Shown: piece by piece, positions 5,907 to 62,831 of the stretch
Layout of the letters: each line of letters starts with the position of its first letter
How positions within the stretch are numbered: the first letter of the stretch is position 1
Assembly: GCF_051903065.1 (NCBI RefSeq)
Contig: NZ_CP178438.1
Length of the DNA: 64,000 bases
Source of the DNA: Escherichia coli
Lineage (GTDB): Bacteria > Pseudomonadota > Gammaproteobacteria > Enterobacterales > Enterobacteriaceae
Strand: one strand, 5' to 3'
Program-made: the position numbers and the translations under genes
The notes under the pieces: generated by a model
Database searches by the model: none
Told to the model about the DNA's origin: nothing
The model's input: the letters and a program-made list of their open reading frames with translations, nothing else

Positions 5907-9084
<3,178 letters not shown>

Positions 9085-9138
9085 ACCTGATTTCAGTATC
9101 ATGCCCAGTCATTTCTTCACCTGTGGAGCTTTTTAAGT

Positions 9139-9414
9139 ATGGCACGCGTAACTGTTCAGGACGCTGTAGAGAAAATTGGTAACCGTTTTGACCTGGTACT
9201 GGTCGCCGCGCGTCGCGCTCGTCAGATGCAGGTAGGCGGAAAGGATCCGCTGGTACCGGAAGAAAACGATAAAACCACTGTAATCGCGCTGCGCGAAATC
9301 GAAGAAGGTCTGATCAACAACCAGATCCTCGACGTTCGCGAACGCCAGGAACAGCAAGAGCAGGAAGCCGCTGAATTACAAGCCGTTACCGCTATTGCTG
9401 AAGGTCGTCGTTAA
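9139..9414 (+). CDS. rpoZ: RNA polymerase omega subunit
   Basis: 91 aa [31 protein letters not shown]... matches RpoZ. Confidence 0.96.
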
Positions 9415-9432
9415 TCACAAAGCGGGTCGCCC

Positions 9433-11541
9433 TTGTATCTGTTTGAAAGCCTGAATCAACTGATTCAAACCTACCTGCCGGAAGACCAAATCAAGCGTCT
9501 GCGGCAGGCGTATCTCGTTGCACGTGATGCTCACGAGGGGCAAACACGTTCAAGCGGTGAACCCTATATCACGCACCCGGTAGCGGTTGCCTGCATTCTG
9601 GCCGAGATGAAACTCGACTATGAAACGCTGATGGCGGCGCTGCTGCATGACGTGATTGAAGATACTCCCGCCACCTACCAGGATATGGAACAGCTTTTTG
9701 GTAAAAGCGTCGCCGAGCTGGTAGAGGGGGTGTCGAAACTTGATAAACTCAAGTTCCGCGATAAGAAAGAGGCGCAGGCCGAAAACTTTCGCAAGATGAT
9801 TATGGCGATGGTGCAGGATATCCGCGTCATCCTCATCAAACTTGCCGACCGTACCCACAACATGCGCACGCTGGGCTCACTTCGCCCGGACAAACGTCGC
9901 CGCATCGCCCGTGAAACTCTCGAAATTTACAGCCCGCTGGCGCACCGTTTAGGTATCCACCACATTAAAACCGAACTCGAAGAGCTGGGTTTTGAGGCGC
10001 TGTATCCCAACCGTTATCGCGTAATCAAAGAAGTGGTGAAAGCCGCGCGCGGCAACCGTAAAGAGATGATCCAGAAGATTCTTTCTGAAATCGAAGGGCG
10101 TTTGCAGGAAGCGGGAATACCGTGCCGCGTCAGTGGTCGCGAAAAGCATCTTTATTCGATTTACTGCAAAATGGTGCTCAAAGAGCAGCGTTTTCACTCA
10201 ATCATGGACATCTACGCTTTCCGCGTGATCGTCAATGATTCTGACACCTGTTATCGCGTGCTGGGCCAGATGCACAGCCTGTACAAGCCGCGTCCGGGCC
10301 GCGTGAAAGACTATATCGCCATTCCAAAAGCGAACGGCTATCAGTCTTTGCACACCTCGATGATTGGCCCGCACGGCGTGCCGGTTGAGGTCCAGATCCG
10401 TACCGAAGATATGGATCAGATGGCGGAGATGGGTGTTGCCGCGCACTGGGCTTATAAAGAGCACGGCGAAACCAGTACTACCGCACAAATCCGCGCCCAG
10501 CGCTGGATGCAAAGCCTGCTGGAGCTGCAACAGAGCGCCGGTAGTTCGTTTGAATTTATCGAGAGCGTTAAATCCGATCTCTTTCCGGATGAGATTTACG
10601 TTTTCACACCGGAAGGGCGCATTGTCGAGCTGCCTGCCGGTGCAACGCCCGTCGACTTCGCTTATGCAGTGCATACCGATATCGGTCATGCCTGCGTGGG
10701 CGCACGCGTTGACCGCCAGCCTTACCCGCTGTCGCAGCCGCTTACCAGCGGTCAAACCGTTGAAATCATTACCGCACCGGGCGCTCGCCCGAATGCCGCG
10801 TGGCTGAACTTTGTCGTTAGCTCAAAAGCGCGCGCCAAAATTCGTCAGTTGCTGAAAAACCTCAAGCGTGATGATTCTGTAAGCCTGGGCCGTCGTCTGC
10901 TCAACCATGCTTTGGGTGGTAGCCGTAAGCTGAATGAAATCCCGCAGGAAAATATTCAGCGCGAGCTGGATCGCATGAAGCTGGCAACGCTTGACGATCT
11001 GCTGGCTGAAATCGGCCTTGGTAACGCAATGAGCGTGGTGGTCGCGAAAAATCTACAACATGGGGACGCCTCCATTCCACCGGCAACCCAAAGTCACGGA
11101 CATCTGCCAATTAAAGGTGCCGATGGCGTGCTGATCACCTTTGCGAAATGCTGCCGCCCTATTCCTGGCGACCCGATTATCGCCCACGTCAGCCCCGGTA
11201 AAGGTCTGGTGATCCACCATGAATCCTGCCGTAACATCCGTGGCTACCAGAAAGAGCCAGAGAAGTTTATGGCTGTGGAATGGGATAAAGAGACGGCGCA
11301 GGAATTCATCACCGAAATCAAGGTGGAGATGTTCAATCATCAGGGTGCGCTGGCAAACCTGACGGCGGCAATTAACACCACGACCTCGAATATTCAAAGT
11401 TTGAATACGGAAGAGAAAGATGGTCGCGTCTACAGCGCCTTTATTCGTCTGACCGCTCGTGACCGTGTGCATCTGGCGAATATCATGCGCAAAATCCGCG
11501 TGATGCCAGACGTGATTAAAGTCACCCGAAACCGAAATTAA
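9433..11541 (+). CDS. spoT: Bifunctional (p)ppGpp synthetase/hydrolase SpoT (TTG start)
   Basis: 702 aa; first codon is TTG at 9433 (ttg tat ctg ttt gaa = LYLFE read as MYLFE); HD domain, synthetase, TGS and ACT regions recognisable. Confidence 0.95.
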   Translation: MYLFESLNQLIQTYLPEDQIKRLRQAYLVARDAHEGQTRSSGEPYITHPVAVACILAEMKLDYETLMAALLHDVIEDTPATYQDMEQLFGKSVAELVEGVSKLDKLKFRDKKEAQAENFRKMIMAMVQDIRVILIKLADRTHNMRTLGSLRPDKRRRIARETLEIYSPLAHRLGIHHIKTELEELGFEALYPNRYRVIKEVVKAARGNRKEMIQKILSEIEGRLQEAGIPCRVSGREKHLYSIYCKMVLKEQRFHSIMDIYAFRVIVNDSDTCYRVLGQMHSLYKPRPGRVKDYIAIPKANGYQSLHTSMIGPHGVPVEVQIRTEDMDQMAEMGVAAHWAYKEHGETSTTAQIRAQRWMQSLLELQQSAGSSFEFIESVKSDLFPDEIYVFTPEGRIVELPAGATPVDFAYAVHTDIGHACVGARVDRQPYPLSQPLTSGQTVEIITAPGARPNAAWLNFVVSSKARAKIRQLLKNLKRDDSVSLGRRLLNHALGGSRKLNEIPQENIQRELDRMKLATLDDLLAEIGLGNAMSVVVAKNLQHGDASIPPATQSHGHLPIKGADGVLITFAKCCRPIPGDPIIAHVSPGKGLVIHHESCRNIRGYQKEPEKFMAVEWDKETAQEFITEIKVEMFNHQGALANLTAAINTTTSNIQSLNTEEKDGRVYSAFIRLTARDRVHLANIMRKIRVMPDVIKVTRNRN

Positions 11542-11547
11542 TGTTTT

Positions 11548-12237
11548 ATGAACCCAACACGTTATGCACGCATCTGCGAAATGCTCGCCAGGCGGCAGCC
11601 TGACCTGACCGTCTGCATGGAGCAGGTCCACAAACCTCATAACGTTTCTGCGATTATTCGTACCGCAGATGCCGTTGGCGTACATGAAGTTCACGCCGTC
11701 TGGCCTGGTAGCCGGATGCGCACCATGGCTTCGGCAGCGGCGGGTAGTAACAGCTGGGTACAGGTGAAAACACACCGCACCATTGGCGATGCCGTCGCTC
11801 ATCTGAAAGGCCAGGGCATGCAGATTCTGGCAACCCATCTTTCTGATAATGCTGTCGATTTCCGCGAAATTGATTACACTCGCCCGACCTGCATTTTGAT
11901 GGGACAGGAGAAAACGGGCATCACGCAGGAAGCATTGGCCCTGGCGGATCAGGACATCATCATTCCGATGATCGGCATGGTGCAGTCGCTGAATGTTTCC
12001 GTTGCCTCAGCCCTCATTCTTTACGAAGCCCAGCGTCAGCGGCAAAATGCAGGCATGTACCTGCGTGAAAACAGCATGTTGCCGGAAGCAGAGCAACAAC
12101 GCCTGTTGTTTGAAGGCGGCTATCCGGTGCTGGCGAAAGTCGCAAAACGCAAAGGCCTGCCTTACCCCCACGTCAATCAGCAAGGCGAAATCGAAGCTGA
12201 TGCTGACTGGTGGTCCACCATGCAGGCCGCAGGGTAA
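11548..12237 (+). CDS. trmH: tRNA (guanosine18-2'-O)-methyltransferase
   Basis: 229 aa MNPTRYARICEMLARRQPDLTVCMEQVHKPHNVSAIIRTADAVG... SpoU/TrmH family. Confidence 0.93.
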   Translation: MNPTRYARICEMLARRQPDLTVCMEQVHKPHNVSAIIRTADAVGVHEVHAVWPGSRMRTMASAAAGSNSWVQVKTHRTIGDAVAHLKGQGMQILATHLSDNAVDFREIDYTRPTCILMGQEKTGITQEALALADQDIIIPMIGMVQSLNVSVASALILYEAQRQRQNAGMYLRENSMLPEAEQQRLLFEGGYPVLAKVAKRKGLPYPHVNQQGEIEADADWWSTMQAAG

Positions 12238-57844: not shown

Positions 57845-58177
57845 ATGATAAGAAATGTGTTGTTAGCGTTCATGATATGCAGCGGAATGACATTACTCGG
57901 AGGATGCTCCAGCGTGATGTCCCATACCGGGGGGAAAGAAGGAACGTATCCCGGCACCCGCGCCAGCGCCAGCATGATTGGCGACGATGAAACCAACTGG
58001 GGCACTAAGTCGCTGGCGATTCTCGATATGCCGTTTACCGCTGTGATGGACACACTTTTACTGCCGTGGGATGTGTTCCGCAAAGACAGCTCGGTGCGCT
58101 CACGCGTTGAAAAAAGCGAAGCCAACGCGCAAGCCACCAATGCGGTTATTCCACCGGCCAGAATGCCTGATAACTGA
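57845..58177 (+). CDS. yidQ: Uncharacterized lipoprotein YidQ
   Basis: 110 aa from MIRNVLLAFMICSGMTLLGGCSSV... (lipobox LGGC). Confidence 0.88.
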   Translation: MIRNVLLAFMICSGMTLLGGCSSVMSHTGGKEGTYPGTRASASMIGDDETNWGTKSLAILDMPFTAVMDTLLLPWDVFRKDSSVRSRVEKSEANAQATNAVIPPARMPDN

Positions 58178-58178
58178 T

Positions 58179-59411
58179 TTAGCGATCAGTTTCGGTGATC
58201 CACAGCTGACCGCCTTCCATCCACGCCAGCCATTGACCATCCGGCGAGAAGACCACGGCGTCCGCAGAAGGTGGATTGGCGTGGTTTTCGGTTAAATACT
58301 CAACCTCCCCGCTTTCCGCATGGGCACAAGCAATTCGATTATCCAGCACAAAGCCCAACCATTCTCCTGATGGATGCCAGTTAAATGCAGACTGAATATC
58401 CGTTTTGTTATGGGTTAACTGGCGCGGCTCGCCGCCCTGTGGCGAGATAAGCCACAGTTGCACAATGCCGTTATCATCTCGCATTAAAAACGCGATTTGC
58501 GTACCCTGCGGATTACAGCGCACCCAGTGGCGCGGGACGTTGACTAACCCCGGATAAGCCCGATGGTGGGTAAAGGTTAAACGTCGCTGCACGACGCCAC
58601 GCGGTGGCGCGGGCAGGGTTGTTTCCGTTCCGCTTAACGGCGCATCACCTGCTGCTTTCCAGCCAGCTTCATCTTGCGGTAACTCAACGATAAACAGCTC
58701 CGGCACTTTCTCGCTCTTTGGCGAAAGTGTGTCGCCAATAAACGCCAGCGCTTGATTTCCTACCCATCCTTCTTCATAAGCACGATTGATTTCATCGCTG
58801 CCAGGCTGCGGCGTGGGCGTTGTTTTACTCACCAGTGCGCACCAGTGGCTACCGCTGTATTCACGCGGATGCTGCTTTTGTACGTTGACCGGGCCAAACG
58901 GTGCAGCAACCCCGACGTTTCGCAAATCCAGCGCTGGGCTGCGTTCATGCATTACATGGTCGTTATAGGTAAAGCTCACCATTTCACCGTTCGGGCTAAA
59001 GACATGCACATGGCTGCCGCCGCGCAGCGCTCCTGGGGTGTACGGTGCAGTAATATCCATTGCATCGAGATTGCTCACCTTGCCGCCTTCAGCAATGACT
59101 CCGCGTCGATGATGGAAATCGTAATGCCATGTTTCATCAGGATTTTCAGGGCCGTGAATAAAGACATATTTATCTGACTTCGGATGAACGGTCACCACGC
59201 CGACGTGTGCGCCCTGTGACGCGCGATAGATAACCTCGACCTCACCGGTATGGATATTCACACGCTCAATGGTCTCGCCGGTAAACGACGCCCCAGAAGG
59301 ACGCACGTCAAATACCAGCCACTGGCTGTCGGGCGTCCAGGTATTGGTATTGGTGAGCAGGTGATTACGGGGAGCAAAGGTTATCTGTTTCATGGCGTGG
59401 TCCTGATACAA
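58179..59411 (-). CDS. yidR: Uncharacterized beta-propeller protein YidR
   Basis: About 404-410 aa (start at 59411 or at MKQ 59393); matches YidR. Confidence 0.88.
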   Translation of the reverse strand: MYQDHAMKQITFAPRNHLLTNTNTWTPDSQWLVFDVRPSGASFTGETIERVNIHTGEVEVIYRASQGAHVGVVTVHPKSDKYVFIHGPENPDETWHYDFHHRRGVIAEGGKVSNLDAMDITAPYTPGALRGGSHVHVFSPNGEMVSFTYNDHVMHERSPALDLRNVGVAAPFGPVNVQKQHPREYSGSHWCALVSKTTPTPQPGSDEINRAYEEGWVGNQALAFIGDTLSPKSEKVPELFIVELPQDEAGWKAAGDAPLSGTETTLPAPPRGVVQRRLTFTHHRAYPGLVNVPRHWVRCNPQGTQIAFLMRDDNGIVQLWLISPQGGEPRQLTHNKTDIQSAFNWHPSGEWLGFVLDNRIACAHAESGEVEYLTENHANPPSADAVVFSPDGQWLAWMEGGQLWITETDR

Positions 59412-59493
59412 AACGGTTCACGCCATCATACTTCACAAGGACTTCACTTTCAGACAATAGTCTTTTGCCATCGTGATGAATGTGAGTGAAAAG

Positions 59494-60558
59494 ATGGAAC
59501 ATTTCGACGTGGCGATTATTGGCCTCGGCCCGGTAGGGTCGGCGTTGGCGCGAAAGTTAGCAGGCAAAATGCAGGTGATCGCGCTGGATAAAAAGCACCA
59601 GTGTGGTACTGAAGGTTTCAGCAAACCCTGCGGCGGTCTGCTGGCACCGGACGCGCAGCGATCTTTTATTCGCGATGGACTGACGCTTCCTGTCGATGTG
59701 ATCGCTAATCCGCAGATTTTCAGCGTCAAAACCGTCGACGTCGCCGCATCGCTCACGCGTAACTACCAGCGAAGCTATATCAATATTAATCGCCATGCTT
59801 TCGACTTGTGGATGAAATCGCTGATCCCCGCCAGCATTGAGGTTTACCACGATAGCCTGTGCCGGAAAATCTGGCGTGAGGATAATAAATGGCATGTCAT
59901 TTTTCGTGCAGACGGCTGGGAGCAGCATATTACCGCCCGCTATCTGGTCGGTGCCGATGGTGCCAACTCGATGGTGCGGCGACATCTCTACCCGGATCAT
60001 CAAATCCGTAAATATGTCGCAATCCAGCAGTGGTTCGCAGAGAAACATCCGGTGCCGTTCTACTCCTGCATCTTTGATAATGCGATAACTGACTGTTACT
60101 CATGGAGTATCAGCAAAGACGGTTATTTTATCTTTGGTGGTGCCTATCCAATGAAAGACGGTCAGACGCGTTTCGCGACGCTGAAAGAGAAAATGAGCGC
60201 CTTTCAGTTCCAGTTTGGCAAAGCGGTGAAAAGCGAAAAATGCACAGTGCTGTTTCCCTCACGCTGGCAGGATTTTATCTGCGGTAAGGACAACGCCTTT
60301 CTGATTGGTGAAGCGGCGGGATTTATCAGCGCCAGTTCGCTGGAGGGGATTAGCTATGCGCTGGATAGCGCAGAGATTCTGCGTGCGGTGTTCCTGAAAC
60401 AGCCGGAGAAGAGCAACGCCGCTTACTGGCGCGCCACCCGCAAACTGCGTTTAAAACTCTTCGGCAAGATAGTAAAAAGCCGATGCCTGACCGCACCGGC
60501 TTTAAGAAAGTGGATTATGCGCAGTGGTGTGGCACATATTCCACAGTTGAAGGATTAG
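59494..60558 (+). CDS. cbrA: FAD-dependent oxidoreductase CbrA (colicin M resistance)
   Basis: 354 aa from [25 protein letters not shown]... (Rossmann GxGxxG). Confidence 0.92.
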
Positions 60559-60668
60559 CCAACGCGCTTCACATCGCCCACCAGCAGGATGTAAGAGAGC
60601 GCGCCAATCAACGCGACGGCGGAGATATAAACCAGTGCCGGGGCAAAGCCATAGCCTTGCAACAGATA
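60555..60668 (-). pseudogene. dgoT: 3'-terminal remnant (about 37 codons) of D-galactonate transporter gene dgoT; rest of dgo operon absent
   Basis: Minus-strand translation [37 protein letters not shown] matches the C-terminus of DgoT as recalled; an in-frame stop immediately precedes it; its stop codon overlaps the cbrA stop. Confidence 0.6.
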
Positions 60669-60803
60669 TTAGTCCACAAAAAAACACCTCATAAGAAAAG
60701 GTCTTATATCGGGCAGAAATCTGAAAAGGGAGATCAGGCGCTAAACAGGAGGGAAAGAAGAGTATGCTTTCAACGGCTTAGCTACTCGTTTAAAGGATTA
60801 ATC

Positions 60804-61460
60804 ATGAAGTTGAATTTTAAGGGATTTTTTAAGGCTGCCAGTTTATTCCCACTGGCGCTGATGCTTTCAGGCTGTATCTCGTATGCTCTGGTTTCCCATA
60901 CCGCAAAGGGTAGTTCAGGAAAGTATCAATCGCAGTCAGACACCATCACTGGGCTATCGCAGGCAAAAGATAGTAATGGAACAAAAGGCTATGTTTTTGT
61001 AGGGGAATCGCTGGATTACCTTATCACTGATGGTGCCGATGACATCGTTAAGATGCTCAATGATCCAGCACTTAACCGGCACAATATTCAGGTTGCCGAT
61101 GACGCAAGATTTGTTTTAAATGCGGGGAAAAAGAAATTTACCGGCACAATATCGCTTTACTACTACTGGAATAACGAAGAAGAAAAGGCACTGGCAACGC
61201 ATTATGGTTTTGCCTGTGGTGTTCAACACTGTACCAGGTCACTGGAAAACCTAAAAGGCACAATCCATGAGAAAAATAAAAACATGGATTACTCAAAGGT
61301 GATGGCGTTCTACCATCCATTTAAAGTGCGATTTTATGAATACTATTCACCCAGAGGCATTCCGGATGGTGTTTCCGCAGCATTACTGCCAGTGACTGTT
61401 ACGCTGGACATCATTACTGCACCGCTGCAATTTCTGGTTGTATATGCAGTAAACCAATAA
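60804..61460 (+). CDS. yidX: Uncharacterized lipoprotein YidX
   Basis: 218 aa from [30 protein letters not shown]... (lipobox LSGC); ORF-track 60483 start is an upstream extension. Confidence 0.9.
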
Positions 61461-61470
61461 TCAGTAAGCG

Positions 61471-61500
61471 GGCAAACGCGTTTATGCTGTTTGCCCGCCC
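61471..61500. terminator. Hairpin between convergent yidX and yidA (gcgggcaaacgcgtttatgctgtttgcccgc)
   Basis: Long inverted repeat between two convergent stop codons. Confidence 0.5.
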
Positions 61501-61505
61501 ATAGA

Positions 61506-62318
61506 TTAATTCAGCACATACTTTTCAATGGCAAACGCCACGCCATCTTCAAGGTTGGATTTGGTGACAAAGTTCGCCACTTCTTTCACCGAAGGAATAG
61601 CATTATCCATTGCCACACCGACGCCTGCATATTCAATCATTGCAATGTCGTTTTCCTGATCGCCAATCGCCATGATTTCTTCCGGTTTAATACCTAACAC
61701 GTCGGCCAGTGATTTCACCCCCGTACCTTTGTTAACGCGTTTATCGAGGATTTCGAGGAAGTACGGCGCACTTTTCAGCACGGTATATTTCTCTTTCACT
61801 TCCTGCGGAATACGCGCGATAGCCTGGTCGAGGATGGCGGGTTCATCAATCATCATCACTTTCAGGAACTGGGTATTGGGGTCCATTTTCTCCGCTTCGC
61901 AGAACACCAGCGGAATAGTAGCAACGAAGGATTCATGCACCGTGTAGTAGCTGATATCACGGTTGGCGGTGTACAGCGTGGTGCGGTCCAGTGCGTGGAA
62001 ATGAGAACCGACTTCGCGAGAGAGTTTTTCCAGGAAACGGTAGTCGTCATAGCTGAGAGCGGTTTGCGCCACAGTGCTACCATCAGCGGCCTTCTGTACC
62101 AGCGCGCCGTTATAAGTAATGCAGTAGTCGCCCGGCTGTTCCATATGCAGCTCTTTCAGGTAATTGTGAACACCTGCATAAGGGCGACCCGTCGTTAGCA
62201 CGACATTTACGCCACGGGCGCGAGCTGCAGCAATCGCATTTTTAACGGCAGGTGAAATGGTGTGATCGGGCAGCAGAAGGGTGCCATCCATATCGATAGC
62301 AATGAGTTTGATAGCCAT
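61506..62318 (-). CDS. yidA: Sugar phosphatase YidA (HAD superfamily, Cof-type)
   Basis: 270 aa MAIKLIAIDMDGTLLLPDHTISPAVKNAIAAARARGVNVVLTTGRPYAG... with DxDGT motif. Confidence 0.94.
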   Translation of the reverse strand: MAIKLIAIDMDGTLLLPDHTISPAVKNAIAAARARGVNVVLTTGRPYAGVHNYLKELHMEQPGDYCITYNGALVQKAADGSTVAQTALSYDDYRFLEKLSREVGSHFHALDRTTLYTANRDISYYTVHESFVATIPLVFCEAEKMDPNTQFLKVMMIDEPAILDQAIARIPQEVKEKYTVLKSAPYFLEILDKRVNKGTGVKSLADVLGIKPEEIMAIGDQENDIAMIEYAGVGVAMDNAIPSVKEVANFVTKSNLEDGVAFAIEKYVLN

Positions 62319-62432
62319 GAGTTCCCCAGGTAGATTGGTTCCTGACCCATGCTAACGCGATTCCGCTCAAAAATCAGTACAACACCCGAGGGAAAAGGGG
62401 GATGCAACGCGCGTTGCGTGCTCCCCATTTGC

Positions 62433-62831
62433 TTAGCGGAAGAGTTTCCCTTTCAGCAGTTCCATGCCTGCGGAAAGCAGATCGTTATTGGCTTGTGGTG
62501 ACACTTCACCTTGCGGTGAGAGCGCATCAATAATCTTCGGCAATTGTTCTGCCAGTAAACTGGAAGCTGTACTGGTATCCACGCCAAGTTTTTGCCCGAG
62601 CTCGGACACCGCATTTGTGCCGAGCGCCGATTCCAGTTGCTCGCCGCTCACCGATTGATTGCCCTGTTGATTACTCAGCCAGGTTGAGAGAATGGCCCCT
62701 AAGCCGCCACTTTGCAGTTTTTCCAGCAGCACCTGAATGCCGCCCTGCTCCTCAACCCAACTTAAAATCGCCTGATATTTCCCCGCATCGCCTTTCAGAA
62801 AGGCGCCGACAACTTCATCAAAAAGCCCCAT
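62433..62831 (-). CDS. yidB: UPF0213/DUF937 family protein YidB
   Basis: 132 aa from MGLFDEVVGAFLKGDAGKYQAILSWVEEQGG...; ORF-track 215 aa version is an upstream extension. Confidence 0.9.
   Translation of the reverse strand: MGLFDEVVGAFLKGDAGKYQAILSWVEEQGGIQVLLEKLQSGGLGAILSTWLSNQQGNQSVSGEQLESALGTNAVSELGQKLGVDTSTASSLLAEQLPKIIDALSPQGEVSPQANNDLLSAGMELLKGKLFR

Follow-up and report, generated by a model that had tools for sequence, protein, structure and literature searches.

Loss of the D-galactonate (dgo) operon between cbrA and yidX in Escherichia coli and a dgoT remnant at a shared deletion scar

The dgoRKADT operon of Escherichia coli K-12 is responsible for D-galactonate catabolism and is repressed by DgoR, which acts at two inverted repeats overlapping the promoter. 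In MG1655, the genes at this locus are arranged in the order yidR, cbrA, dgoT, dgoD, dgoA, dgoK, dgoR, yidX, yidA, yidB and gyrB. This agrees with the initial annotation of the E. coli DNA studied here (a stretch of 64,000 nucleotides, hereafter the window), which had placed the K-12 operon between cbrA and yidX; the two genes are therefore not neighbours in K-12. In the window, only a short interval separates them, and this raises the questions of what was lost, how widespread and how old the loss is, and whether the source strain could still use D-galactonate.

The cbrA-yidX interval and the missing segment

The gene cbrA, which encodes a colicin M resistance lipid reductase, is intact in the window (59494 to 60558, plus strand), following the RefSeq annotation of the window-identical CP083585.1, and K-12 CbrA matches it with 96% identity over 354 amino acids (tblastn). 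yidX, encoding a putative lipoprotein, is also intact (60804 to 61460, plus strand) and is of the K-12 type, referred to below as allele class 1. Between the cbrA stop and the yidX start (60558 to 60804), 245 bp are counted, so the short gap noted in the initial annotation stands, with its length corrected from 246 bp. Upstream of its ATG, the yidX reading frame continues without a stop for 321 bp, giving a 325-amino-acid open reading frame (60483 to 61460, plus strand) that runs across the scar and antisense to the dgoT remnant described below into the 3' end of cbrA; antisense codon bias probably accounts for it.

What is left of the operon genes is a dgoT 3' remnant at 60555 to 60668 on the minus strand, consisting of the last 37 codons and the stop codon, a pseudogene fragment without its N-terminus. 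In a tblastn search of the whole window, it corresponds to residues 394-430 of K-12 DgoT with 97% identity, and the match is far above chance because its E-value is 3.7e-15. The fragment is thus homologous to DgoT, and a complete open reading frame of about 430 amino acids is absent. The remnant is convergent with cbrA and overlaps its 3' end by 4 bp, as dgoT does in MG1655. In the window-identical genome and at other scar loci, PGAP labels it as a pseudo "hypothetical protein, missing N-terminus". An in-frame TAA lies immediately upstream of the remnant (60669 to 60671, minus strand) and comes from the sequence ...GATCTAA... just outside the DgoR operator IR1; translation thereby bears out the in-frame stop reported before the DgoT-like C-terminus. 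No match to DgoD, DgoA, DgoK or DgoR was obtained anywhere in the 64-kb window by tblastn. The claim that the operon is absent and that a dgoT 3' remnant is all that is left of it is upheld.

The extent of the loss was determined by alignment to the K-12 MG1655 locus (L001). By blastn, window positions 60300-60668 correspond to L001 4184-4552, and positions 60669-61100 to L001 9303-9735. The first block, 369 bp long and comprising the 3' end of cbrA and the remnant, is 94% identical to K-12 DNA. As the two blocks abut at 60668/60669, homology ends there, in accordance with the earlier estimate of about 60670, and column-by-column comparison with MG1655 also places the deletion junction at 60668 to 60669. 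It follows from this placement that exactly 4,750 bp are absent, namely L001 4553-9302, or NC_000913.3 3,870,552-3,875,301. The left breakpoint lies after dgoT codon 393. On the other side, the break falls on the outer edge of the operator IR1, ATATTGTTGTACTACAATTTAG (PMC11705089), in the region upstream of dgoR and 141 bp from its start. With these breakpoints, dgoT codons 1-393, dgoD, dgoA, dgoK, dgoR, the dgo promoter and both DgoR operators are gone relative to MG1655, so that promoter, operators and five genes are all lost. From IR1, only the terminal TTAG is left, and everything promoter-proximal is deleted; a dgo promoter with IR1 and IR2, by which the operon could be recognized, is therefore missing from the window. 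The site and the orientation of the dgoT end are the same as in K-12, but the five genes and their promoter and operators are lacking.

At the scar, the last 114 bp of dgoT lie against cbrA, and from the dgoR-yidX intergenic region the distal 135 bp are retained. The latter begin with a scar-specific hypervariable segment (60669 to 60716) that is about 70% identical to K-12, followed by the yidX-proximal part (60717 to 60803), which is nearly identical to K-12 in blastn and other alignments and presumably carries the yidX promoter and ribosome-binding site. A consensus scan of 60300-61000 gave no promoters or terminators above shuffle expectation, and an Rfam scan of 59000-62500 at E<=1 gave no match.

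Both flanks are collinear with the intact allele and nothing is inserted between them, as expected of a simple deletion. A repeat search at 60400-60900 revealed short chance repeats only and no insertion sequence (IS) ends, filler or flanking direct repeats. Any microhomology at the breakpoints would amount to at most 0-2 bp of ambiguous overlap, and the junction sequence is strongly diverged from every intact allele. A microhomology-mediated deletion at GTAC was considered and rejected, as its predicted junction is unlike either scar. The description of the scar as "clean" is thus accurate in that IS elements and filler are lacking, but not for the 30 bp and 48 bp at the junction, which are strongly diverged from every dgo-positive allele examined.

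Distribution of the scar and of dgo genes

The presence of the scar was surveyed in a collection of 5,426 complete E. coli genomes using an 801-bp junction-spanning query for which contiguous coverage was required. The contiguous query was found in 412 genomes, and the 48-mer to the right of the junction in 410, none of them dgo-positive, which corresponds to about 7.6-8% of complete E. coli. dgoD is present in 5,021 genomes and absent from 405. The scar occurs in several lineages, including O157:H7; in strain Sakai, cbrA (ECs_4630) and yidX (ECs_4631) are separated by 245 bp. Further carriers include many other O157:H7 genomes, O145, O169:H41 and O157:H16, as well as assorted isolates from water and from human, poultry, pig and baboon hosts, whose genomes measure 4.6-5.0 Mb. 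The O157:H7 interval has the same junction and the same 245-bp spacing as the window and differs from it in the dgoT codons next to the junction; the exact O157-type 51-mer was found in about 310 genomes. The junction is identical in seven inspected E. coli loci whose flanking sequences differ, and the 245-bp intervals of the inspected scar loci differ pairwise at up to about 10 positions. One scar genome, ET350 (NZ_CP100966.1, 7696-11342), carries IS150 inside the yidR-cbrA-yidX stretch.

Several E. coli isolates without structural dgo genes have been described (PMC12288454). No published description of this scar was found in the literature searched. The scar is an instance of a long-known kind of gene-content polymorphism and of ordinary gene loss. 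O157:H7 lacks dgo as a so-called "K-island", and the Sakai record itself shows the absence. The initial reading of the scar is supported, with the qualification that the allele is neither private nor recent.

A second dgo copy in the source genome is possible in principle, because some scar genomes have dgoD and because conjugative plasmids carry dgoRKADT. Since the sum of 412 and 5,021 exceeds 5,426 by 7, at least 7 scar genomes also hold dgoD; a dgoD copy of any kind occurs in no more than about 2% of scar genomes. For the source strain, the nearest complete genomes were used as stand-ins and were searched with a composite query of 2.2 kb of the window and 701 bp of K-12 dgoD. Three genomes, 23CRST027, 23CRST031 and ECNB21-M121, are identical to the window (100% over 2.2 kb); in each, the composite query matches one place only, and no dgoD was found on the chromosome. 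By this proxy, a complete operon elsewhere, which had been named as a finding that would overturn the initial reading, was not found, and a second copy in the source genome is unlikely. Scar chromosomes with three or four places for the composite query were observed in SM107, APEC37, 3CM, EC1515, EC974, 4FM, DSM 103246 and ABW_A19; a second dgo copy may be present elsewhere in these genomes. On plasmids, only five dgoD places were found in the whole E. coli collection. In both L068 (AP026488.1) and L069 (NZ_AP022088.1), on conjugative IncFIB/IncI-gamma/K1 E. coli plasmids, positions 6985-11982 hold all of dgoRKADT as a module of exactly 5,000 bp, with IS2 and aspA/dcu genes as neighbours. The module equals K-12 L001 4423-9422, essentially the entire cbrA-yidX interval, with its edges near the cbrA stop and the yidX start.

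Related species were scanned, one genome per species, with a CbrA query followed by tblastn of the neighbouring genes. The same type of scar is present in Escherichia sp. E1V33, with 98% identity over 101 bp across the junction and flanks about 92% identical to the window, and in Escherichia sp. MOD1-EC7003, which agrees with the window in the junction-proximal codons and in the right flank but also has an extra 23-bp deletion and a truncated cbrA and has lost part of the remnant. The flanks of these two genomes are about 92-96% identical to the window. An identical junction is thus shared by E. coli, E1V33 and MOD1-EC7003, whereas Escherichia albertii is ambiguous. In E. albertii NBRC 107761, a dgoT remnant is found with the junction shifted by about 5 bp on each side and an equal total length; its right-flank motif is that of the window, but its junction-proximal codons are K-type and its yidX is of class 2, both unlike the window. 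This scar may go back to the same event, with patchy conversion afterwards, or may be an independent deletion nearby. In the genome deposited as "E. coli E69", the deletion is larger and no dgoT remnant is left; here, identity of the flanks to the window is about 92%. Escherichia whittamii Sa2BVA5 (L014, 10477-12503) has dgoT, dgoD and dgoR, with a gap of about 195 bp between dgoD and dgoR; dgoA and dgoK were not detected at the locus by tblastn, and, judged from this arrangement, the operon looks like a case of different, internal degradation.

Outside Escherichia, Citrobacter species are either dgo-positive or dgo-negative at the cbrA site, and the operon is absent in many. Citrobacter sp. 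MGH106 (L026, 9107-9190) has a 28-codon dgoT 3' remnant between cbrA and yidA, and Citrobacter sp. Cu233 (L054, 9128-10234) has kept most of dgoT, but the 3' end of the gene is gone, as is all else of the operon. As in the window, the operon is lost at the same cbrA-proximal site with a dgoT fragment remaining, but these deletions are separate events because breakpoints and genera differ. In Kosakonia, Phytobacter and Superficieibacter, the dgo operon lies on the opposite side of cbrA. This survey indicates that dgo loss is recurrent in the family and that the scar of the window is shared among Escherichia lineages.

Divergence at the junction and origin of the allele

The sequence next to the junction is unusual. 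Compared with four dgo-positive E. coli, the window has 17 differences per 100 bp at 60600-60699 and 7-8 at 60700-60799, against a background of about 1-6. Codon alignment resolves a D-type tip in the remnant, formed by its 10 junction-proximal codons (60639 to 60668, minus strand). Relative to all dgo-positive E. coli sampled, these codons carry eight third-position changes, all synonymous, and in addition GCG>TTG (Ala>Leu), while the 27 cbrA-proximal codons are essentially identical to all E. coli. With 10 variable sites, the probability of 8 or more in the third position is about 0.003 (hand binomial calculation). Such a pattern is the hallmark of a sequence that diverged while constrained to encode protein. 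It does not resemble decay following the deletion or error-prone repair.

Variation also exists among the scar alleles themselves. In the window, three further third-position changes are present at 60639-60650 (GGC TTT GCC CCG, compared with GGG TTC GCA CCT in the O157 type), and its exact 37-mer tip occurs in just three complete genomes. Other scar alleles show intermediate tip combinations, giving a patchy mosaic. To the right of the junction, about 30% of positions in the 48-bp segment differ from K-12, and this segment is variable among dgo-positive alleles as well; within it, the scar alleles without exception share derived states, such as the motif CACCTCATAAG, that the dgo-positive alleles examined lack.

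An intact donor of the tip was looked for in several collections. In roughly 4,949 remaining E. coli genomes, the scar-type 51-mer is matched with only 80-90% identity, and the dgoT-annotated matches, among the matches listed, are all 82-86% identical and represent the ordinary K-type (blastn). No intact dgoT with the diverged tip was found in five diverse dgo-positive E. coli or among 18 dgoT genes of other Enterobacteriaceae, and none on plasmids, whose dgoT copies are K-type. An exact-pattern scan of metagenome contigs for the diverged tip gave two matches, both in unrelated sequence, and when the junction was searched against all fetched loci by blastn-short, matches were confined to Escherichia scars.

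Taken together, the scar very probably reflects a simple 4.75-kb deletion that persists as an old presence/absence allele of diverged origin, with galactonate use predicted to be lost. One deletion of this size would have produced the scar at 60555-60803, would predate the source strain, and would have been passed on both vertically and by homologous recombination. That the allele is old follows from the occurrence of the junction in many E. coli lineages and in other Escherichia. The third-position synonymous divergence peak points to an origin in a strongly diverged, functional dgoT: the scar allele may have been born in such a once-functional gene or may have taken its tip from one. Homogenization of the outer flanks with ordinary E. 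coli alleles would later have extended to a few tens of bp from the junction; the sequence closest to the junction would stay old, because a recombination tract crossing the junction would convert the allele. The scar of E. albertii, at the same place but with ordinary K-type codons, fits a single-event history poorly.

A further-reaching interpretation, which is offered tentatively and is itself rather doubtful, is that dgo-positive and dgo-negative states form an ancient trans-species polymorphism that predates the diversification of E. coli and is perhaps kept by fluctuating or frequency-dependent selection, the dgoT of the scar being foreign or very old. If so, the scar haplotype would go back to a dgoT lineage as distant as that of a different genus, of which only an island of divergence of roughly 80 bp around the junction survives, recombination having homogenized the remainder, and yidX, with its two shared allele classes, would belong to the same long-lived polymorphic locus.

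The simple junction without filler and the rarity of the exact 37-mer tip could also be explained by a recent deletion private to the source isolate or its immediate clone. This is barely credible given that 410-412 complete genomes from a wide range of serotypes and hosts have the same breakpoint, as do O157:H7 Sakai and further Escherichia species, and that scar alleles differ from one another at up to about 10 of 245 bp. Alternatively, the interval could be an ancestral empty site into which the operon was inserted in K-12-like lineages, an idea for which the varying presence and position of dgo in Enterobacteriaceae (Citrobacter, Kosakonia, Phytobacter, Superficieibacter) and the 5.0-kb plasmid module could be cited. 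The 37 in-frame dgoT codons, with 97% amino-acid identity, and the distal dgo regulatory region contradict it, because insertion would leave no dgoT or regulatory remnants, and such an origin is very improbable. Relocation of a functional copy to another locus or a plasmid, with the phenotype kept, is made conceivable by the at least 7 scar genomes with dgoD, by those with three or four places for the composite query and by the conjugative IncFIB/IncI-gamma/K1 plasmids carrying dgoRKADT. It is nevertheless improbable to a similar, slightly lesser degree: the three window-identical genomes show a single place and no chromosomal dgoD, only five plasmid dgoD places exist collection-wide, and at most about 2% of scar genomes have dgoD.

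Two other proposals concern the history and the fate of the remnant. The scars of E. coli and E. albertii may be independent deletions at a recurrent hotspot, as suggested by the E. albertii remnant, which is K-type up to the junction with breakpoints about 5 bp off on each side, and by independent dgo deletions with other dgoT remnants in Citrobacter MGH106 and Cu233, with "E. coli E69" also cited. Set against this are the equal total length of the junction interval in both scars, the derived CACCTCATAAG shared by all scar alleles and missing from the dgo-positive alleles examined, and the lack of a detected repeat or microhomology to account for a hotspot; independent origin is a possibility to be kept in mind but is not the expected outcome. 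It has also been considered that the remnant is kept as a functional small open reading frame encoding a 35-amino-acid single-helix peptide from the TTG created by GCG>TTG, in line with the nearly all synonymous tip substitutions and with an open reading frame with a TTG start at 60555-60662 in the list of open reading frames. However, all synonymous changes fall within 10 codons and the remaining 27 have none, a distribution that fits recombination rather than long-term constraint; elsewhere, singletons such as K>T, L>F, A>G and an altered stop codon occur. With the dgo promoter deleted, neither a promoter-like site nor a well-placed Shine-Dalgarno sequence detected, and part of the remnant missing from MOD1-EC7003, a retained function is hardly believable. 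Under the preferred reading of an old deletion allele, the remnant would be inert, save possibly as the 3' region of cbrA.

Variation between haplotypes is not limited to the junction. In E. coli, yidX exists in two allele classes with 61% amino-acid identity and about 30% nucleotide divergence, which is limited to the gene. Class 1 was observed in the window, K-12 and RM13745, class 2 in S10EC, DLL557, Z1002, E. albertii, "E. coli E69" and MOD1-EC7003, and a third class in E. whittamii (loci examined beside the window: L009, L010, L012, L015, L016 and L059). Every combination of dgo presence or absence and yidX class occurs. In addition, the 5' part of yidR (58900-59200) has 8-13 differences per 100 bp from several E. 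coli, and the yidQ/yidR boundary (58000-58200) has 13-17 differences per 100 bp from S10EC. Old haplotypes appear to form a mosaic across the entire region from yidQ to yidX.

Consequences for D-galactonate use

The functions absent at the locus are uptake (DgoT), dehydration (DgoD), phosphorylation (DgoK), aldol cleavage (DgoA) and regulation (DgoR). With the transporter, dehydratase, kinase, aldolase and regulator all gone, D-galactonate uptake and catabolism should fail, and the source strain is predicted from its gene content to be unable to grow on D-galactonate. The initial annotation had also described galactonate utilization as a trait under selection in gut colonization. This is borne out to the extent that, in the mouse gut, dgoR loss-of-function mutations, which raise dgo expression, are repeatedly selected and show frequency-dependent behaviour (PMC7064181); loss of the operon is not the subject of that work.

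The novelty of these findings is modest and lies in the cross-species scar, the codon-position divergence island and the dimorphic yidX alongside; no new mechanism is proposed. The annotation of such loci can be improved by the name "dgoT remnant", since the RefSeq label is only a pseudo "hypothetical protein", and, as the scar is fixed or near-fixed in O157:H7, it is usable as a lineage marker. D-galactonate counts in gut competition, and the scar predicts that it is not used by the source strain. The divergence at the junction and the dimorphic yidX beside it offer a small, tractable case of the persistence of old presence/absence alleles under recombination.
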